A DNA stretch of 64,000 bases from Candidatus Nanohalobium sp. (GTDB lineage Archaea; Nanohalarchaeota; Nanosalinia; Nanosalinales; Nanosalinaceae), in NCBI GenBank assembly GCA_042217555.1, contig JBDGSL010000002.1:32001-96000 (forward strand). The letters run 5' to 3'. Of the stretch, positions 53,973-63,989 are shown piece by piece. Positions within the stretch are counted from its first letter, which is position 1. Each line of letters begins with the position of its first letter. Below the pieces are notes generated by a model, which made no database searches, was not told the origin of the DNA, and was given only the letters and a program-made list of their open reading frames with translations. The position numbers and the translations under genes are program-made.

Positions 53973-54359
53973 ATGGGTTATTTGATTGATACTGATTGGG
54001 CTGTAGATTACCTGAAAGGAGTCGATGAAAAAGTAAAGTTCCTTCAGAGTCATGAAGAACTTTACATCTCCACATTAACAGTTGGAGAGCTTGTCGAAGG
54101 GATCGAAGACTCTAGCAGTAGAGAACAGAGAATGAATAGTCTGGAAGACTTTCTATCAGGAATAACGGTTTTAGCATTTACAAAACAGATTGGAGTAGAG
54201 TTCGGAAAGATTAGAAACAAACTACGGAAAGAAGGCGAAATGATTGGTGATATAGACACCATGATAGGGGCGACAGGAAAGACACATGACCTTGAAATAC
54301 TGACCGACAACAAACAACACTTCCAGAAAATAAACGGAATCCAAATACACGAAGAATGA
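53973..54359 (+). CDS. vapC: PIN-domain toxin (VapC family)
   Basis: YLIDTD, TVGEL, IGDIDTMIGAT, LTDNKQHF. Confidence 0.92.
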   Translation: MGYLIDTDWAVDYLKGVDEKVKFLQSHEELYISTLTVGELVEGIEDSSSREQRMNSLEDFLSGITVLAFTKQIGVEFGKIRNKLRKEGEMIGDIDTMIGATGKTHDLEILTDNKQHFQKINGIQIHEE

Positions 54360-56804: not shown

Positions 56805-56840
56805 GAAGGATTTTTGTAGTTGCTGTTCTCAAGTTTTAGC

Positions 56841-57200
56841 ATGGCGAGTGATGAGTTTTTCGATAGTTTGATTTTGGATGAGAATGTTGATTATTTGGTT
56901 GAGAAGAAGCTGGAGAACAACGGTTTTGAGTGTATCCGCTTCTTAGAAGGTGCTGAGGACAGGGATTTGATGGATTTCTGTATCGAGAAGGAGTTGCCTT
57001 TACTGACTGAGGATGATGATTTCAAGACAGATATTATTACGATAGAACATTCAGGTATCTTGTTTGACCGTTACCTGTCGAGAAGAGATACTGACATGGT
57101 TGTTGATACTTTGGAAGAAGTTCTCTCAACTTATAACAAGGAAACTTTAAGCAACGAAATATGGCATTTATCCGACTTTTATGGCAGAGATAGTTTTTAA
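56841..57200 (+). CDS. DUF5615/PIN-like protein
   Basis: ILDENV, GAEDRDL, LLTEDDDF, HSGI. Confidence 0.82.
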   Translation: MASDEFFDSLILDENVDYLVEKKLENNGFECIRFLEGAEDRDLMDFCIEKELPLLTEDDDFKTDIITIEHSGILFDRYLSRRDTDMVVDTLEEVLSTYNKETLSNEIWHLSDFYGRDSF

Positions 57201-57412
57201 GCGGTGACGCCTGTTTCGTTTTCTTCCTGTTTCTGTCTGTATCGGATTGCTTCTTCTACATCTTCTGTGTCGATTGAAGGGTATCTACTGGCAATTTCTT
57301 CCGGTTCAACTCCATCCTTGTAGAGTCCGTAGAGTGTTCTGACAGGTATCCGTGTGCCTTCGACTCGTGGTTTGCCGTGAAGCGTATCCTCTGTTTTGAC
57401 AATCTTTGACAT
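57197..57412 (-). CDS. DUF433 protein
   Basis: HGKPRVEGTRIPV...EEIASRYPSI..EDVEEAIRY. Confidence 0.9.
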   Translation of the reverse strand: MSKIVKTEDTLHGKPRVEGTRIPVRTLYGLYKDGVEPEEIASRYPSIDTEDVEEAIRYRQKQEENETGVTA

Positions 57413-57706
57413 GAACAAGTGAGATTCCTGAATTGTTTTATCAGTTATGGTTGTTGGAAGGGTGTTAGTTCGAAGTCTCTGTATGAGAGGATTCTCCTGA
57501 AGACTATTTCAACCCATTTATAAAGTTTTCTTCCCTTTTCCAGTAATACCCGACACGAGTTTTCTCGGTTGGGACAAGCCGGCTCTTGTGGAGTGGGCCT
57601 CTGGTGATTGAATTCAGCGGCTAGACAAAGTTACGTCGTTGAATTATACTTAAACTGGCTATGCCTCTGACTTCAGTTGGAGGCCTATAGGAGTTGAATC
57701 AACACA

Positions 57707-58678
57707 ATGGCAGACAAGAATAGATCAAGAAGCGGTTCACTGGCGTACAAGCCCAAGACACGGGCTGAAAGAATCTACCCAGACGTAAGTACGTGGGAAG
57801 ACACAGACAAACAAAAACCATTAGGATACGCAGGATACAAGGTCGGAATGACCCGGGTACTGCGAATAGATGATACAGAAGGAGCAACACAGGGACAGGA
57901 AATCGCAACACCTGTAACAATTCTCGAAGCTCCGCCACTGAGAGTTTACGGAGCACGTTTCTACGTTGAAGATATCAACTCTGGAAAACAGGTCTTCACA
58001 GAGGCCTGGACAGAAAGCCCTTCGAAGGAACTCCAGAGAGCAACAGACATCCCGAAAGAAGGAAACATGGACAACCTGGAGAAAGCAAAGGAAAACTCAG
58101 GGAATATTACGGATGTCAAGCTGTTGGTTCACACTCAGCCTTCTCGTGCAGGAATCAGTAAGAAGAAACCTGCCAACTTTGAACTCGGCCTAGGTGGCTC
58201 AGTTGAAGATCAGCTTGAGTACGCAGAAGAGATGATCGGAAAAGAAATCGAGTTCTCGGACGTATTCGAGGAAGGAGAGTACTCGGACGTTATCGGTGTT
58301 ACGAAAGGAAAGGGAATGGAAGGTCCTGTACAGCGTTACGGAATCAAGAAGCTGGACCACAAGACGCAGAAGAAAAGAAGAAAGGCTGGAAACGTCGGTC
58401 CATGGCATCCGGACCAGCTTTCATGGAGAATTCCTCTTCCAGGACAGCAGGGTTACAACAACAGGACAGAGGAAAACAAGAGGATCCTCGCACATGGTGA
58501 AGACCCAGAGGAAGTTCAGAGGGATGGAGGATTCAAGAACTACGGAGAAGTCAAGTCCAACTACATTTTAGTTAAGGGAAGCGTACCAGGACCGGCAGAA
58601 AGACTGGTCCGACTTAGAACAGCACTGAGAAAGGATGAAAAACCAGGAAATCCAGAGATCACGCACATCGAAAAATAA
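57707..58678 (+). CDS. rpl3: 50S ribosomal protein uL3
   Basis: RSGSLAY, GYKVGMT, TKGKG, GPWHP, KGSVPG. Confidence 0.97.
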   Translation: MADKNRSRSGSLAYKPKTRAERIYPDVSTWEDTDKQKPLGYAGYKVGMTRVLRIDDTEGATQGQEIATPVTILEAPPLRVYGARFYVEDINSGKQVFTEAWTESPSKELQRATDIPKEGNMDNLEKAKENSGNITDVKLLVHTQPSRAGISKKKPANFELGLGGSVEDQLEYAEEMIGKEIEFSDVFEEGEYSDVIGVTKGKGMEGPVQRYGIKKLDHKTQKKRRKAGNVGPWHPDQLSWRIPLPGQQGYNNRTEENKRILAHGEDPEEVQRDGGFKNYGEVKSNYILVKGSVPGPAERLVRLRTALRKDEKPGNPEITHIEK

Positions 58679-58689
58679 GGTGAATTAAA

Positions 58690-59445
58690 ATGGAGCTACC
58701 AAACCAGTTCGACGAGAGGATAAGGCCAGACATCATCAAGAGAGCCAACCTTTCAATCAAGAGCAAGAAAAGACAGGACTACGGGTCAGACCCGGAAGCA
58801 GGACTGCGACACGTAGTATACTGGAAAAAACAGCAAAACGCATACAGAGGGCAGAAAGGAAAGGGAATGTCTCGTACTCCTCGAAAGATCCGTGTCAGAA
58901 GAGGAAGTCAGATCTATGGAGACGGAGCAGAAGCACCGAACACGATCGGTGGCAGAACCGCCCATCCTCCAAAAGCAGAGAAAAACTTTGAAGAAGAGAT
59001 CAACGACAAGGAAAGAAGAAAGGCAATCAGGTCAGCAATCGCAGCAACAGCAGACCGGGAACTTGTCTCAGAGAAACATGAGTATGAAGGAGAAGTCCCG
59101 ATTATCGAGGAAGGAATCTCAGGGATTGAAAAGACACAGGAACTCAAGGAGAAGCTCGAAGACCTTGGACTTGAAGACGAACTTGACAGAGTGTCCGAGA
59201 AGAAAGTTAGAGGAGGTAAAGGAGCCAATCGTGGAAGAAAGTACGTTAGAAAGGTTGGCCCGCTTGTAGTAACAGCGGAAGACGAAGGAATCTCAGATGC
59301 GGCAAGCAACCTGGCAGGTGTAGACCACTCCCAGGTAGATCAGCTGAACGCCGAAAAACTTGCTCCAGGAGCAGAACCAGGAAGACTGGTTGTATGGAGC
59401 AAAAAAGCAGTAGAGAAACTTGAAGAAGACGGTATGTACCAATGA
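58690..59445 (+). CDS. rpl4: 50S ribosomal protein uL4
   Basis: IRPDIIKRA, GGRTAHPPK, LAPGAEPGRL. Confidence 0.97.
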   Translation: MELPNQFDERIRPDIIKRANLSIKSKKRQDYGSDPEAGLRHVVYWKKQQNAYRGQKGKGMSRTPRKIRVRRGSQIYGDGAEAPNTIGGRTAHPPKAEKNFEEEINDKERRKAIRSAIAATADRELVSEKHEYEGEVPIIEEGISGIEKTQELKEKLEDLGLEDELDRVSEKKVRGGKGANRGRKYVRKVGPLVVTAEDEGISDAASNLAGVDHSQVDQLNAEKLAPGAEPGRLVVWSKKAVEKLEEDGMYQ

Positions 59446-59501
59446 AAACGAAAACACAAGGTTTTCTAAGATTCAGCAACACGCGAGGTGTAACTGAATA
59501 A
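59442..59501 (+). other. Hairpin mini-ORF 1 (MKTKTQGFLRFSNTRGVTE)
   Basis: ATGA overlap with the rpl4 stop; TAATG overlap with the rpl23 start. Confidence 0.6.
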
Positions 59502-59770
59502 TGGAAGTTGACAGAGCATGGGAAGTTATCGAAAATCCACACATGACAGAACAGGCGATGGACATGATCGACGAAGAAAACAAACTCGTCCTCATGGTGG
59601 ATCTGGAAGCAGACAAAGGCCAGGTAGAGGACGCAGTAGAGACTCTGTTCGATGTGGATGTTGAGAAGGTCAATACTAACATCACGTCTTCCGCAAAGAA
59701 AAAAGCATACGTAAGACTAAGTCCAAGTGACAGCGCGATGGACGTCGCGACTGAGCTTGGCATGATGTGA
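59501..59770 (+). CDS. rpl23: 50S ribosomal protein uL23
   Basis: PHMTEQA, VEKVNT, KKAYVRL. Confidence 0.96.
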   Translation: MEVDRAWEVIENPHMTEQAMDMIDEENKLVLMVDLEADKGQVEDAVETLFDVDVEKVNTNITSSAKKKAYVRLSPSDSAMDVATELGMM

Positions 59771-59780
59771 GGTAGGTAAT

Positions 59781-59834
59781 ATGACTAAAATCGAAGATTT
59801 TATGGGTTACCAGAAACTCGGTGAGTTTCGATAA
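59781..59834 (+). other. Hairpin mini-ORF 2 (MTKIEDFMGYQKLGEFR)
   Basis: GAGGT upstream; TAATG overlap with rpl2; two palindromes. Confidence 0.65.
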
Positions 59835-60535
59835 TGGGATCGCCACTAAAACAGCAGAGAAGAGGAAAGGGAAGTCCAAACTTCCAGGCCAATAAGAAAG
59901 GCAAGGGAGTAACGGATCACAAAAACGCAGAAGTAACGGGAACAGTAGTAGACCTGGTCCACGACCCGGCCAGGACAGCACCGGTAGCAAAAGTAGAGTT
60001 CGAAGACGGAGAAGTCAGAAACATTCTTGCACCGGAAGGCCTACAGACAGGAGACGAAATTCAGGTCGGAGTATCAGCACCTGTAGAACCCGGAAACGTA
60101 CTTCCACTAGGAGAAATCCCGGAAGGAGTACCAATCAACAACATCGAACTACAGCCAAACGACGGAGGAAAAATGGTTAAGGCATCAGGAACATACGCAT
60201 TCGTCGTAACACAGGAGCAGGACGGAGTAAGAATCAAGCTTCCAAGCGGTGACTTCAAGAAACTCGATACTGAATGCAGAGCAACAGTTGGAAAGGTTGC
60301 AGCCGGCGGAAGAAAAGACAAGCCGCTTGTCAAGGCCGGAAACGCATCCAAGGCTGCAAAGGCTCGTGGAAAACAGTACCCAACTGTCTCCGCAGTAGCC
60401 ATGAACGCAGTCGACCACCCATTCGGTGGATCAGCAAAACCAGGACAGCCAAAGACAGTTTCCAAGCACGCTTCACCAGGAAGCAAGGTTGGAAACATCG
60501 GAGCCAAACGCTCCGGAAAGAAGAACAACGACTAG
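59834..60535 (+). CDS. rpl2: 50S ribosomal protein uL2
   Basis: QRRGKG, HDPARTAP, AMNAVDHPFGG. Confidence 0.97.
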   Translation: MGSPLKQQRRGKGSPNFQANKKGKGVTDHKNAEVTGTVVDLVHDPARTAPVAKVEFEDGEVRNILAPEGLQTGDEIQVGVSAPVEPGNVLPLGEIPEGVPINNIELQPNDGGKMVKASGTYAFVVTQEQDGVRIKLPSGDFKKLDTECRATVGKVAAGGRKDKPLVKAGNASKAAKARGKQYPTVSAVAMNAVDHPFGGSAKPGQPKTVSKHASPGSKVGNIGAKRSGKKNND

Positions 60536-60545
60536 GTGAACCCGC

Positions 60546-60605
60546 ATGACTAAAATCAAAGATTTTATGGCATTGCAGAAAACCACTGAGGTGGTTTTCG
60601 AATGA
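60546..60605 (+). other. Hairpin mini-ORF 3 (MTKIKDFMALQKTTEVVFE)
   Basis: AGGTGA upstream; ATGA overlap with rps19; first 25 nt match mini-ORF 2 with one mismatch. Confidence 0.65.
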
Positions 60606-60979
60606 CAGAAGAATTCACTTACAGAGGAAAAACACTCGAAGAACTCCAGGACATGAGCCACGACGAACTAGCACCGCTTATGGATGCCCGGGCTCGCAGA
60701 AAACTGGAGAGAGGTCTTCGAGAAAACGAGGAAAAACTACTGGAAAAACTGGAGGACAAGGACCGTGTCCAGACACATCTCAGAGGAATGATCGTCCTTC
60801 CAGAAATGGTAGGAAAGACTATCGAGATCTACAACGGGCAAGGATTCGAAGAGGTTGATATTGAAGAAGAGATGATTGGCCACTACCTAGGAGAGTTCGC
60901 AAAAACCAGGAAAGAAGTATCACACAGCGCACCAGGACTCGGTGCTACAAGATCTTCAAAGCACGTACCGCTTAAGTGA
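60602..60979 (+). CDS. rps19: 30S ribosomal protein uS19
   Basis: FTYRGKTLEEL, THLR, MIGHYLGEF, GATRSS. Confidence 0.97.
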   Translation: MTEEFTYRGKTLEELQDMSHDELAPLMDARARRKLERGLRENEEKLLEKLEDKDRVQTHLRGMIVLPEMVGKTIEIYNGQGFEEVDIEEEMIGHYLGEFAKTRKEVSHSAPGLGATRSSKHVPLK

Positions 60980-60984
60980 TTCAA

Positions 60985-61092
60985 ATGCGAAAATCAGAGA
61001 TTCGAAAATTCGGAGAATTTTCTCCAAGAAATTCCTCACGGAATTTCGTTTTCAGCCTTCCCAGAAACTCACAAGGTGAGTTTCGGCAATGA
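60985..61092 (+). other. Hairpin mini-ORF 4 (35 aa, MRKSEIRKFGEFS...GEFRQ)
   Basis: ATGA overlap with rpl22; three palindromes. Confidence 0.6.
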
Positions 61093-61511
61093 ACAAGATC
61101 GAAACAGAACCACATCAGGCAAGAGCACTCGGCAAGAACATGCCGATCTCCTGGAAAGACGCAACAGAAATCGGCCGCTTCATCAAGGGAGACACGGTCG
61201 AAAAAGCAGAGAGAAAACTGGAAAAGGTAACGGAAGAAGAACTCGCCGTACCGTACACAAAGTTCGACAGCGACGCAGGCCACCGAAGCGGAGACGGAGA
61301 CTCAGGAAAATATCCTGTCAAAGCAGCAGAACACATGCTTGAAGTCGTACAGGAAGCAGCAAGCAACGCAGAACACCAGGGACTTAACCCGGGATCACTG
61401 CATGTAGAAAACGTCATCACAAACAAAGGAAACGAGTACGCAACCCCTGGACGGTTTAGGGGAGAGAAAACCAAGGCAGCACATGTCAACGTAATCGTAG
61501 GTGAAAAGTAA
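61089..61511 (+). CDS. rpl22: 50S ribosomal protein uL22
   Basis: ISWKDATEI, GKYPVKAA, NAEHQGL. Confidence 0.95.
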   Translation: MNKIETEPHQARALGKNMPISWKDATEIGRFIKGDTVEKAERKLEKVTEEELAVPYTKFDSDAGHRSGDGDSGKYPVKAAEHMLEVVQEAASNAEHQGLNPGSLHVENVITNKGNEYATPGRFRGEKTKAAHVNVIVGEK

Positions 61512-61615
61512 TGAATCGAAAACGAAAATTCAGTGAATTTTCTCAGAGAAAATCCTCAGGGATTTTCGGATCAGAGATTTTCTCAGTGATTTACACGCAA
61601 GGTGAAAATCAATAA
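61511..61615 (+). other. Hairpin mini-ORF 5 (34 aa, MNRKRKFSEFS...QGENQ)
   Basis: TAATG overlaps at both ends (rpl22 stop, rps3 start). Confidence 0.65.
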
Positions 61616-62769
61616 TGCAAGAGAAACAGTTTATTGAGAAGGGAGCAAGGAAGGTAAGGCTTGATGAGTTCTTCTCGGATGAGCTTGCAGGAGCAGGTTA
61701 TTCCAACTGTGAAATTGAGAGGACTCCTACAAGTACCAAAATCGTAGTACATGCACAGAAACCAGGACTGGTTATAGGACGTGGTGGAAGCAGGATTCAG
61801 GAACTGACTGAAGATCTTGAAAGCGAGTTCGATTTCGAGAACCCGCAGATCGAGGTCAGCGAGATCGATGAACCGGATGCAGACGCAAAGGTCGTGGCGA
61901 AGAGTATTGCAGACTGGCTTGAGAAAGGAGGCCACGCCAAACGTGTAGGATACACATACGTCCGCAGGATGAAAGAAGCAGGTGTTATCGGAGCAGAGAT
62001 AGAGATTACAGGAAAACTCTCCGGTAACAGAGGAAGAACAGAGAAGTTCTCCTTCGGATACGTCAAGAGATGTGGAGACACCTCAAAGAAAAACGTTCAG
62101 AAAGGATACGAGCTAGCCCGTACCAAACCAGGTGCTATCGGTGTCAAAGTAAGGATCATGAAGGACATGCCAGGTTTCCTTCACAGAGACGTCGATGTAA
62201 GCGGTGAAGTCCTCCATGAAGTCCAGGAAACTGAGGAAGCAAGAGATAAATCCACGAGGATTGAGGAAGTCGTCAGAGAAGCAGAGAATATGACTTCGGC
62301 AGAGCTTGAAAGAGCTATCGAGGAGAAGACAGAGGAAGTCAAGACAGACGACATCTCCAAGGAGGAAATCAGGGAAGCCTTCGACTCCGCTGACGCAGTA
62401 GAGAAACTGGAGGAAGAAGCTGAAGAAGTCGAAGAAGAAGCAGAGGAAATCATCGAGGAAGAAACAGGTGAAGAACAGGAAGAAGACGTTGAAGCAACTG
62501 AAAAGGAAGCTGAAGAAGTCAAAGAAGAGGCAGAGAAAGTTGCTGAAGAGACAGAGGATGAAGACGTAGAAGAAAAGGCTGAAGAAGTTGAGGAGGAAAT
62601 GGAAGAAGTAGAAAAAGACCTTGAGGAAATCGTCTCAGGTACGATAAGCGATGCCAAAGAGATGATCAACGAACTGGAGAATCCTGACTTCACAGCCCTG
62701 CTCGAGGCAGAGAAAGAGAACAAGGACCGTAAAACCTTCAAGGACTGGCTTGAAACCCGGAAGGATTAA
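61615..62769 (+). CDS. rps3: 30S ribosomal protein uS3 with long acidic C-terminal extension
   Basis: KPGLVIGRGG KH domain, GAEIEITGKL, GVKVRI. Confidence 0.96.
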   Translation: MQEKQFIEKGARKVRLDEFFSDELAGAGYSNCEIERTPTSTKIVVHAQKPGLVIGRGGSRIQELTEDLESEFDFENPQIEVSEIDEPDADAKVVAKSIADWLEKGGHAKRVGYTYVRRMKEAGVIGAEIEITGKLSGNRGRTEKFSFGYVKRCGDTSKKNVQKGYELARTKPGAIGVKVRIMKDMPGFLHRDVDVSGEVLHEVQETEEARDKSTRIEEVVREAENMTSAELERAIEEKTEEVKTDDISKEEIREAFDSADAVEKLEEEAEEVEEEAEEIIEEETGEEQEEDVEATEKEAEEVKEEAEKVAEETEDEDVEEKAEEVEEEMEEVEKDLEEIVSGTISDAKEMINELENPDFTALLEAEKENKDRKTFKDWLETRKD

Positions 62770-62794
62770 AAGAGCTGAGAGGTGAAACCAAACC

Positions 62795-62983
62795 GTGAAA
62801 GCAGAAGAACTAAGAGAGAAGAGCGTATCCGAACTGAAGGAAGAACTTGGAAACCTTCAGAAAGAACTCGTACAGCAGAGAGGACAGATCGAGGCCGGAG
62901 GATTCGCTGACAGCCCGGGAGAGATCAAAGAGATGAAGAAAACCATTGCAAGAATCAAAACAGTTCTCAACGAACGCAACTAG
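62795..62983 (+). CDS. rpl29: 50S ribosomal protein uL29
   Basis: ELREKS...KKTIARIKTVLNE; GAGGTGA SD; GTG start. Confidence 0.95.
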   Translation: MKAEELREKSVSELKEELGNLQKELVQQRGQIEAGGFADSPGEIKEMKKTIARIKTVLNERN

Positions 62984-62989
62984 ATACTA

Positions 62990-63097
62990 ATGAACGAAAT
63001 TCACAGAATTTCTGGAATCAAAGGCCTTTCAGGCCTTCTGCAACCTAGAAACCTGAAAGGTTTCGGAACTGCAGAAAATCGGGAGGCCGATTTTTGA
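62990..63097 (+). other. Hairpin mini-ORF 6 (35 aa, MNEIHRISG...NREADF)
   Basis: TGA immediately followed by the SUI1 ATG; four palindromes. Confidence 0.6.
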
Positions 63098-63403
63098 ATG
63101 TCAGAGACCTGTCCAAAGTGCGGAATGCCTGAAGATCTTTGCGTCTGCGACAGCATCGCACGTGAAGATCAACAGATTACAGTAAAACTCGACTCAAGAA
63201 GCTACAATAAAGAGATGACAGTAGTTGAAGGCCTTGAAGAAGGATCAGAAATAGACGAACTGGCCTCGACACTGAAATCCCAACTTGCCTGCGGAGGAAC
63301 AGCCAAGGAAGGCCACATAGAACTTCAGGGCGACCACAGAAGAAGAATCGTCGACATACTGGAAGACGAAGGCTTCTCACGAGAAAACATCGAAGTCAAA
63401 TAA
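63098..63403 (+). CDS. Translation initiation factor aIF1/SUI1
   Basis: CPKCGMPEDLCVC, LACGGT, IELQGDH. Confidence 0.95.
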   Translation: MSETCPKCGMPEDLCVCDSIAREDQQITVKLDSRSYNKEMTVVEGLEEGSEIDELASTLKSQLACGGTAKEGHIELQGDHRRRIVDILEDEGFSRENIEVK

Positions 63404-63596: not shown

Positions 63597-63989
63597 TTAC
63601 CTGTTTCTCTCGTGTTTTCTGGCAAACTCTTGCCAGTTGTCTACAATTTTCTGGTATGCCGACCAGTAGTCCAGATGCTCTAGAGGAACTTTGTCGTCCT
63701 TGAAGGGGTGATCCTGGAACTTTAGGTCGATGTGTACAAATCCGTGTGCTGTGTCTAAAGTCACTACTTCCTCGTTTTCCTCTGTCTCAGGATTCCTGCA
63801 GACAAGAGTTATGCAGAAGTCTTCTTTTTCTTCAACGTCTTCTAGTTTATAGTCTGGCCTGTAGACGACCTCATATGCTTTGCCTTTAAACTGTCCCAGA
63901 GATAAGGAGTCGCTGGTCATTGCCGATTTTCCCTCTAAATGTTGTTTGTAATACATCATTGATAAAGTGTTGAGGTCAGACATCATCAC
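63597..63989 (-). CDS. Hypothetical protein
   Basis: Open 130-codon frame with an LDTAHGFVHID motif; start uncertain. Confidence 0.55.
   Translation of the reverse strand: MMMSDLNTLSMMYYKQHLEGKSAMTSDSLSLGQFKGKAYEVVYRPDYKLEDVEEKEDFCITLVCRNPETEENEEVVTLDTAHGFVHIDLKFQDHPFKDDKVPLEHLDYWSAYQKIVDNWQEFARKHERNR

Follow-up and report, generated by a model that had tools for sequence, protein, structure and literature searches.

The window, i.e., the whole stretch of 64,000 nucleotides analysed here, belongs to a nanohaloarchaeon (Candidatus Nanohalobium sp.) and carries an S10-type operon in which six genes are preceded by a hairpin holding a Shine-Dalgarno (SD) motif (Table 1). A sequence-only reading had pointed out perfect hairpins before rpl2, rps19, rpl22 and SUI1 as well as an imperfect one before rps3, and all five were recovered in place; a sixth, before rpl23, had been overlooked. 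An assembly artefact can be excluded: contigs from run X1, possibly the source sample, are identical over positions 59300–60211, 61200–61959 and 62043–63300 (the insert before rps19 lies outside these listed pieces), and a near-identical copy of the insert before rpl22 in another genus (genome G040, see below) is a further argument. At gathering score, Rfam returned no match in the operon region and a single tRNA elsewhere in the window. The anti-SD sequence GGAUCACCUCC was taken from four relatives; the 3′ end of the organism's own 16S rRNA is not assembled.

Each hairpin forms the 3′ end of what we term a cassette, 50–111 nt long from start to start, that is located between the original start codon of the gene and a replacement SD, stop and start codon. 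From the native SD and ATG, a frame of 16–36 codons (mini-ORF) now runs through the cassette; it covers the stem in all six cassettes of the window and stops on or beside the host start.

Table 1. Features of the S10-type operon and its cassettes (positions in the window; energies in kcal/mol)
Feature	Position	Strand	Remarks
Host S10-type operon rpl3, rpl4, rpl23, rpl2, rps19, rpl22, rps3, rpl29, SUI1	57707..63403	+	gene names confirmed by Pfam
SD AGGTGA of rpl4	58678..58683	+	plain 11-nt spacer, control; opening 4.1
rpl23 cassette	59442..59503	+	19-codon mini-ORF (59442-59501), starts in ATGA overlap with rpl4 stop, ends TAATG
Last hairpin before rpl23	59469..59498	+	internal loop; SD GAGGTG at 59485-59490; energy -9.8
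Native SD of rpl23-rpl2 junction	59769..59777	+	now used by mini-ORF
rpl2 cassette	59781..59836	+	17-codon mini-ORF (59781-59834), first hairpin 59786-59802, ends TAATG
Last hairpin before rpl2	59813..59829	+	SD GGTGA at 59820-59824, 3 bases in loop; weak lock; energy -6.9, opening 4.1
Native SD AGGTGA of rpl2-rps19 junction	60534..60539	+	now used by mini-ORF; opening 1.7
rps19 cassette	60546..60605	+	19-codon mini-ORF, first hairpin 60551-60567, ends in ATGA overlap
Last hairpin before rps19	60578..60599	+	SD duplex at 60588-60596; energy -11.7, opening 11.3
rpl22 long cassette	60985..61092	+	35-codon mini-ORF, core hairpins 61004-61022 and 61028-61047, ATGA overlap
Last hairpin before rpl22	61064..61084	+	SD AGGTGA at 61074-61079; energy -11.2, opening 8.8
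Native SD within rpl22 3′ end	61499..61504	+	serves rps3 mini-ORF; opening 0.9
rps3 cassette	61511..61617	+	34-codon mini-ORF (61511-61615), TAATG at each end
Last hairpin before rps3	61587..61611	+	imperfect; SD AGGTGA at 61600-61605; energy -7.5, opening 5.2
SD GAGGTGA of rpl29	62779..62785	+	plain 25-nt spacer, control; opening 5.8
SUI1 (aIF1) cassette	62990..63100	+	35-codon mini-ORF (62990-63097), four hairpins, stop immediately before ATG
Last hairpin before SUI1	63075..63094	+	GGAGG at 63082-63086, 4/5 bases in loop; energy -9.3, opening 8.6

Among 55 cassettes across the relatives, 49 mini-ORFs reach the host start, compared with 15.8 ± 2.8 (maximum 23) after shuffling and with 1 and 7 of 55 after frame shifts, and none runs on in frame into the host gene. 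The stop codon falls in whichever frame the mini-ORF uses; stop and start are arranged as ATGA in 17 cases, as TAATG-type overlap in 17, abutting in seven and one base apart in five. Strong selection keeps the end of the mini-ORF at the host start, and hand-over of ribosomes from the mini-ORF to the host gene is therefore likely. That the cassettes are archaeal introns, removed from the mRNA by the splicing endonuclease so that the hairpins never reach the ribosome, is hardly credible, since a spliced insert needs neither an open frame nor a frame-matched stop nor a replacement SD, even though the tRNA introns of this genome contain hairpin modules of a similar kind. The first hairpin is read in all three frames (22/10/12) and the peptide sequence therefore does not matter; a functional peptide was rejected on account of this variation and of the lack of a Pfam match for all three mini-ORFs tested. 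The SD at which the mini-ORF is entered (present in 43/49) equals that of empty junctions in strength and openness (−8.3 and 2.5 kcal/mol in both). With this native site still open, ribosomes gain access to each gene as before, so that the stem does not strengthen the link to the gene upstream and ties the gene to its own mini-ORF only. Outside the operon, 4 of 15 matches in this genome (EF-2, ATP synthase B, RpoK and one unclear case) lack a bridging ORF ending at −6 to +16.

All folding was performed in silico at 37 °C and standard salt. The six hairpins have energies between −6.9 and −11.7 kcal/mol, and shuffling yielded z-scores of −2.8, −0.65, −2.9, −3.0, −1.7 and −3.8 for the six cassettes and of 0.0 and −1.4 for the two plain spacers. 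The SD had been described as locked in the hairpin, which holds for its 3′ part, while its 5′ bases lie in the loop, leaving it half locked: in 48 cassettes, pairing probability is 0.10–0.38 for the first G of the GG(U/C) core and the three bases that precede it, and 0.79–0.93 beyond. Likewise, the contrast with the unpaired SD motifs of the plain spacers is weak within the window, where opening costs as much for rpl2 as for rpl4 (4.1 kcal/mol) and less than for rpl29 (5.8 kcal/mol), with 5.2–11.3 kcal/mol for the other five cassettes, but it is clear across the relatives, with a median of 7.1 kcal/mol for 49 cassettes against 2.5 kcal/mol for 688 short junctions. To call de novo initiation blocked is too strong, since SD pairing and stem opening together are net favourable in 40/49 cassettes.

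Covariation of the stems was counted after anchoring the cassettes at their outer ends (44/59 anchored, 38 of them distinct) and in a whole-cassette alignment of 32; a blind MAFFT alignment of the last 40 nt (52/59 cassettes, the seven long or differently built ones being omitted) misaligned stems of unequal length and was excluded from the counts. Related genomes are not independent, so that the p-values given here overstate significance. The stems covary: of 152 inner pairs of the SD stem, 137 are Watson–Crick, compared with 78 ± 6 after shuffling. The first hairpin, which is free of SD, covaries at least as well, with 95.5% pairing against 80.2%. The stems are A/U-rich and GAAAA/TTTTC-based; both hairpins open with GAAA and close with TTTC, the ends are variable, and the data contain no empty site from the same species.

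These results bear directly on the proposal of the sequence-only reading that the stems evolved to stop de novo initiation, such that ribosomal proteins are made by coupling only and in fixed ratios. One part of it, coupled translation upon melting of the stem by a ribosome, agrees with the covarying stems, the predicted lower accessibility of the SD and the selection on the mini-ORF to end at the host start. The compensatory changes in the SD stem, the difference in opening cost and the selected mini-ORFs could all be claimed for stoichiometric control as well, and SD-occluding structures are known from coupled gene pairs (described in PMC12548453 and PMC6728339). Such control of the operon is nevertheless unsupported and we consider it improbable: entry into the mini-ORF is native and open, 457/532 junctions manage without a cassette, the better paired hairpin is the one without SD, and 13 of 22 newly found loci are not ribosomal at all. 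Moreover, eroded cassettes retain SD strength (−9.3 vs. −9.7 kcal/mol) yet lose opening cost (5.2 vs. 7.2 kcal/mol, p = 0.006), and in Haloferax, albeit a different lineage, the SD is reported in PMC6728339 not to drive de novo initiation at 5′-UTRs.

The general picture that emerged from the distribution of the cassettes is one of scattered insertion. A strict pattern detected cassettes in only 4/70 genomes and a covariance model was used instead, which matches 48/70 genomes and yields 26 matches at E ≤ 0.01 in this genome. Within family f1, cassettes occupy 75/532 junctions, the remaining 457 having no bridged insert; 13/20 junctions are filled in this genome against 2/17, 2/19 and 3/20 in congeners. 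Per junction, 0–6 of 18–41 genomes carry a cassette, i.e., the arrangement is not conserved at the same junction; the exception is rps3 with 18/39. The rpl23 cassette is missing from all three congeners compared (L102–L104), which have no long spacer at that junction. All 22 loci that had not been used for training lie at start codons, three without an upstream ORF ending close by, and the non-ribosomal hosts include genes for DnaJ, thioredoxin, tRNA synthetases and a PAPS reductase-domain protein. In 33/49 cases the closest look-alike of a cassette sits at another junction. Similar cassettes at the same genes in different genera (S24e, RNase PH and Spt4) could be old inherited copies. Overlapping junctions are not preferred, the mini-ORF start overlapping the upstream stop in 12/49 cases compared with 103/442 empty junctions. 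GTG host starts are more frequent at filled (7/49) than at empty junctions (16/442, p = 0.005), which fits a start codon supplied by the cassette.

The rpl22 cassette is 96% identical to that of G040, with one substitution and one 3-nt indel and bounds running exactly from ATG to ATG, while the flanking genes are only 75–77% identical; the cassette is missing in three congeners. In addition, the cassette core, including that of rpl22, is shared with inserts that adjoin tRNA genes with duplicated tRNA ends. SD cores are present in 7/8 hairpin doublets at start sites compared with 3/28 other doublets, and the last hairpin (−9.6 kcal/mol) compares with −9.65 kcal/mol elsewhere when the stronger hairpin per doublet is taken, or −8.05 kcal/mol for all hairpins. 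An exact empty/filled pair from the same species was not seen, and the cassette boundaries thus rest on congeners. Taken together, we consider it probable that the SD hairpin is simply the terminal part of a two- or multi-hairpin cassette and that this cassette is a non-autonomous mobile element of nanohaloarchaea. A purely local origin, by duplication of the start region and palindrome-building template switching filtered for an open frame, appears very improbable. Other inserts at these junctions are indeed flanked by 21–45-nt direct copies of the start region (five junctions), and some similarity to the native SD region of the same junction is seen in a few canonical tails, but tails match their own junction scarcely better than others (p = 0.06), near-identical cassettes occur at different genes and in different genera, and the core recurs at tRNA genes; such sharing of sequence between unrelated sites largely refutes a local origin. 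The 5′ arm of the last hairpin does not match the SD of its own junction either (p = 0.98), and the idea that it serves as a guide by pairing with its target SD is unsupported by the same test.

An IS200/IS605 TnpA was considered as general mobiliser and rejected: this genome has one, some 60 nt downstream of a hairpin doublet, but Y1 transposases (PF01797) occur in 4/70 genomes and cassettes in 48/70. Viral contigs gave no match with the strict pattern and a single loose one that is not a clear cassette, none was found in phages, and a search of metagenome contigs for the exact rpl22 core was negative.

For the mobile cassette we envisage that ribosomes load at the native site and unfold both hairpins in the course of translating the mini-ORF; after termination they would re-initiate on the host gene, helped by the freed SD. 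The mini-ORF would rescue the host gene from the insertion, and the stem would not have been built for operon control; the position of the SD within the last stem may simply follow from the stem directly adjoining the start codon. Stems might be retained since the element needs them or since its copying restores them, and the mobiliser might be a trans-acting enzyme that reads single-stranded hairpins. We tentatively regard it as possible that the cassettes represent a minimal and previously undescribed class of mobile elements, consisting of one hairpin core and an exchangeable repair tail, that land on start codons or tRNA ends and cross genera to the same ATG with neither an enzyme of their own nor a linked transposase. 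The stem over the SD would make the host gene depend on an intact cassette frame, so that nothing short of exact excision or erosion in frame would remove the element, which would persist by holding translation hostage.

A mobile origin might have been followed by domestication at some sites, the half-locked SD now being selected because it tunes output or averts collisions between initiating and exiting ribosomes. Opening still costs more than 5 kcal/mol in 13/25 eroded cassettes and the SD stem often outlasts the first hairpin, so that some selection for the lock as such is conceivable, and the frequently filled rps3 junction carries a cassette common to all four genomes of the genus (48–51 nt longer here, in multiples of three). 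It is precisely this shared cassette, however, that has mismatches in the last stem in two of the four genomes (opening 3.0 and 4.0 kcal/mol), yet none of the four has lost the frame, the SD or TAATG. In genome G065, compared with its congener G066, the 5′ arm has been lost through a deletion that keeps the frame. Domestication therefore seems unlikely.

A literature search in mainly open-access journals returned no account of such elements in nanohaloarchaea. The closest counterparts are mycobacterial interspersed repetitive units (MIRUs), reportedly described by Supply et al. in 1997. MIRUs are presented as dispersed, apparently mobile repeats of 40–100 bp that insert at start codons, with an internal ORF that couples to the gene at the site such that expression is little harmed, and with filled and empty sites among relatives (PMC12548453, PMC3184786); an account of the coupling was found only in a review. 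Compared by description, the cassettes resemble MIRUs in length, in their tens of copies, in start-codon insertion and in empty sites among relatives. They differ in their archaeal host, in A/U-rich instead of G-C-rich stems, in ends that repeat only the 3-nt start codon instead of tetranucleotide direct repeats, and in four stop/start geometries (17/55 with ATGA) where the −4 spacing alone is described for MIRUs. No tetranucleotide repeat was found at the cassette ends: 29/49 share no base after the start codon and the mean shared prefix is 0.65 compared with 0.62 in shuffled sequences. Unlike MIRUs, they also hold a replacement SD inside the last hairpin and share their core with tRNA-linked inserts. 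In their mode of action the cassettes are probably similar to MIRUs.

Translational coupling by RNA unfolding (UTNI) and by termination–reinitiation is treated in PMC6728339, PMC10666635 and PMC12548453, and for Haloferax volcanii it is reported that stop/start overlaps couple strictly and a spacing of about 20 nt nearly abolishes coupling. As in UTNI, the downstream SD of the cassettes lies, with its 3′ half only, in a predicted stem covered by the upstream frame, and stop/start overlaps are of the coupling type. In contrast to UTNI as outlined there, the upstream frame is no partner gene: it belongs to an inserted repeat and is disposable, and at no junction is the arrangement conserved. The Neisseria REP2 repeat carries a promoter and precedes co-regulated genes (PMC3184786); the cassettes mostly lie inside operons and depend on a bridging mini-ORF. 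They also resemble REP doublets, which are described with their RAYT transposase in PMC3184786, in being dispersed, paired short hairpins without a coding gene, and differ from REP/RAYT and IS200/IS605 derivatives in the absence of a linked Y1 transposase and in insertion at start codons and tRNA ends. REPINs, PATEs and IS200/IS605-derived palindromic elements are likewise genome-dispersed paired short hairpins without a coding gene. In the synthetic bicistronic design for bacteria, a short leader cistron is said to hold the second SD, the ribosome's helicase activity clearing structure at the next start; the cassettes are natural, occur as dozens of repeats and bring their own inhibitory stem.

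The cassettes suggest a MIRU-like strategy in archaea, and one at work in the operon that a streamlined symbiont genome can least do without; 60-nt sequences lacking an enzyme would here reach start codons and pass from one genus to another. At the same time, the cassettes offer a natural test set for coupling by RNA unfolding versus re-initiation, in which a single design comes with varied stems, with four stop/start geometries and with both empty and filled alleles. On the practical side, mini-ORFs of this type confuse the annotation of start codons, and the stems, which covary, may wrongly be taken for regulatory RNAs.

The mini-ORF hairpins lie in an S10-type ribosomal protein operon (rpl3, rpl4, rpl23, rpl2, rps19, rpl22, rps3, rpl29, SUI1; Pfam) of a nanohaloarchaeon whose S19 shares 97% identity with the one in a Candidatus Nanohalobium sp. 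record and whose genome, G000, comprises 88 contigs and 1.31 Mb. Four hairpins that the sequence-only reading had placed over Shine-Dalgarno (SD) motifs, and the imperfect one before rps3, were confirmed in position and form, and a sixth of the same kind precedes rpl23. All six surrounding mini-ORFs, 17-35 codons long, end in TAATG, ATGA or directly before ATG. Each belongs to a cassette, an insert of 50-110 nt between the native start codon and a replacement SD, stop and start. In silico, opening the SD costs 4.1-11.3 kcal/mol in these cassettes; the contrast that had been drawn with plain spacers holds for most of them but not for rpl2, where the cost is 4.1, just as in the plain rpl4 spacer (plain rpl29 spacer, 5.8). 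The anti-SD was taken from the 16S 3' end of four relatives, GGAUCACCUCC, that of G000 itself being unassembled.

We fetched the operon from 60 genomes, cut out 1005 junctions (spacers between adjacent operon genes) and retained 816 after dropping L29, RNP1, S17 and SecY, which have naturally long or uncertain spacers, as well as pairs of genes that are not neighbours, uncertain starts and masked sequence. Among these, 688 are short, 115 span 26-200 nt and 13 are longer. Cassettes were picked by an intact upstream hairpin, so that the set was not defined by the feature counted; this yielded 59 of the 115, from 26 genomes, and an SD is present in 58. A start codon precedes the first hairpin in 55, and in 49 of these 55 the mini-ORF stops between positions -2 and +11 relative to the host start, against 15.8 ± 2.8 after shuffling. 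Frame-shifted mini-ORFs reach the host start in just 1 or 7 of 55, and none of the mini-ORFs runs on in frame into the host gene, against 7.2 expected. Stop position matches the frame: it lies directly before ATG in 7/11 frame-0 cassettes versus 1/44 others, and one base earlier in 5/8 frame-2 cassettes versus 1/47 others. The first hairpin is read in any of the three frames (22/10/12; 44 located). The frame of the mini-ORF is selected; its peptide is not.

The mini-ORF start is the inherited native site. It carries an SD in 43/49 cases, with the same strength (-8.3) and openness (2.5) as at empty junctions, and the gap between it and the upstream stop correlates with empty spacer length (rho 0.47, n=48). 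Since the native entry site is kept, the link between a gene and the preceding gene is unchanged, and the stem ties the gene to its own mini-ORF only. The proposal that locked SDs enforce coupled, stoichiometric translation of the operon is thus not supported, and the earlier interpretation is partly supported: what survives is that SDs in stems are predicted to be costlier to open, that the stems are kept through sequence change and that mini-ORFs are selected to end at the host start.

The lock itself appears to be partly real. Median predicted SD opening is 7.1 kcal/mol in the 49 bridged cassettes versus 2.5 in the 688 short junctions, and net SD binding is -1.6 versus -5.6, being unfavourable in just 9/49 cassettes. 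Pairing probabilities over 48 cassettes (0.1-0.4 for 5' bases, 0.8-0.9 for 3' bases) point to an SD that is half exposed rather than fully buried. The SD stem is kept through sequence change: its inner positions are Watson-Crick in 137/152 cases versus 78 ± 6 shuffled, though this shuffle, like that of the mini-ORFs, ignores kinship. The first hairpin, which contains no SD, is as well kept (95.5% paired, two-sided change in 4/7 pairs) as the SD stem (80.2%, a figure lowered by misalignment; 3/8 pairs), and covariation is therefore no proof that the SD is the reason for the stem. In 25 cassettes with an eroded first hairpin, compared with 50 intact ones, SD strength is unchanged and the opening cost drops from 7.2 to 5.2; 13 of the 25 still require >5 kcal/mol, and the last stem itself may thus be under some selection.

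We propose that a ribosome would initiate at the native site, unwind the cassette hairpins while translating, terminate on the host start and re-initiate, aided by the freed SD. In Haloferax volcanii (PMC6728339; PMC10666635), stop/start overlaps couple strictly, an SD promotes re-initiation without helping de novo initiation, and a spacing of ~20 nt nearly abolishes coupling. If these rules apply by analogy to a different lineage, they would explain why the mini-ORF stop has to sit at the host start, stem or no stem. MIRUs are likewise described (PMC12548453; PMC3184786) as inserting at start codons with an internal ORF coupled to the host gene. The nanohaloarchaeal cassettes would work in the same way, but they have another host, another stem composition and other end repeats, and are not MIRUs. 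In the literature searched, which took in few subscription journals, there was no account of such cassettes in nanohaloarchaea.

A covariance model trained on 32 cassettes matches 48/70 genomes of the class, with 26 matches in G000. Eight of the 30 returned loci were copies from the training set; every one of the remaining 22 lies at a start codon, which is partly built in because the model contains start codons. In 18/22 the mini-ORF ends at 0, +1 or +4, in 21/22 opening exceeds 5 kcal/mol, and 13/22 concern non-ribosomal genes (RNase PH, Spt4, RNA polymerase, ATP synthase c, GatB, eIF2-gamma, DnaJ, tRNA synthetase, thioredoxin). Five metagenome matches, two of them identical, are also at starts. 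Cassette-type hairpin doublets in G000, placed with a simple purpose-made gene caller, number 39, of which 8 lie at starts, 3 close to tRNAs, 3 inside genes and 25 in intergenic DNA; SD cores occur in 7/8 start doublets versus 3/28 others, at similar stem energies.

The cassettes are probably mobile. They are patchily spread: junctions are filled in 75/532 cases in the family of G000, in 13/20 in G000 itself, in 2/17, 2/19 and 3/20 in its three congeners, and in several genomes not at all. Between G000 and G040, which belong to different genera and have genes 75-77% identical, the rpl22 cassettes show just one substitution and one 3-nt indel, identity being bounded by the two ATGs; the G000 cassette is absent from the three congeners at 79-90% identity, and G042, a congener of G040, has a more diverged copy. 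In 33/49 cases, the cassette most similar to a given one sits at a different junction. Host starts are GTG in 7/49 filled versus 16/442 empty junctions, as expected if the start comes in with the cassette. A 702-nt contig from a sequencing run, possibly of the source sample, is 99% identical in rps19 and appears to carry ~350 bases of different sequence between rpl2 and rps19, the rpl2 side being anchored by just 30 bases, at most a hint of strain-level turnover. Against mobile cassettes count the rps3 junction, filled in 18/39 genomes, the strong last stem kept in many eroded cassettes, and 4/15 own-genome matches outside the operon that lack a bridging ORF by the rule used. No mobiliser of the cassettes was found, which also counts against mobility: a Y1 transposase occurs in just 4/70 genomes, and viral contigs and phages gave no clear cassette. 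The hairpins might conceivably be recognition structures for a trans-acting enzyme.

The rpl22 cassette has a core of 70 nt that is also present at other starts and next to tRNA genes; at the tRNA genes, an inverted and a direct copy of the tRNA end make up the tail. Both forms share one layout: host sequence, core, and a hairpin whose 3' arm replaces the displaced sequence. In antisense, the T-arm motif (GGGATTTGAA) is similar to the tail found at start sites (GGTGATTTCGAA), possibly reflecting a common target.

Relatives carry orphan ORFs in the same junctions. These too terminate in SD-TAATG at the host start and might represent the same insertion route with cargo added; the L001 protein had no Pfam match and no homologue but itself at 63-202 aa. 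Inserts flanked by direct copies of the start region are possibly founder events of cassettes. A hairpin doublet lies ~60 nt upstream of tnpA in an IS200/IS605 element, whose downstream ORF we take to be TnpB-like. Of the small ORFs flanking the operon, one is presumably PIN/VapC-like and one DUF433-like.

Positions of features in the window, in G000 contigs (C) and in fetched loci (L)
Location	Coordinates	Feature
Window	53973-54359; 56820-57418; 63597-63989	Small ORFs flanking the operon
Window	60535-60602	rpl2-rps19 junction
Window	61615-62769	Rps3, ~200-aa acidic, repetitive C-terminal extension beyond Pfam domains
G000:C12 (L101), past window	95400-104900	Seven further bridged cassettes, downstream spc part (L14, L24, S8, L32e, L19e, L18, S5)
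G000:C12 (L101)		L15 cassette in the same stretch, mini-ORF start 48 nt beyond upstream stop
L236; L238	1460-1650; 1010-1200	rpl22 cassette core beside tRNA-Lys and tRNA-Arg, between two tRNA 3'-end copies
L001	4654-4998	Orphan ORF (102-115 aa class), rpl2-rps19
L118, L119		Orphan ORFs (same class), rpl23-rpl2, rpl2-rps19
L170 (G000:C11)	1357-1408; 1468-2808	IS200/IS605 element (tnpA and partly masked downstream ORF) with its hairpin doublet
L106; L140, L154; L142		Other insert types with 21-45-nt direct copies of start region, at SecY; L32e; S3 and S5 junctions
L136, L138-L141, L144, L146, L148, L150, L152-L155		Conserved protein of 53-60 aa, containing two CxxC pairs, between rpl32e and rpl19e (families f2, f4, f5)
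L131		rpl22-rps3 junction (414 nt), second rpl22-like ORF in tandem
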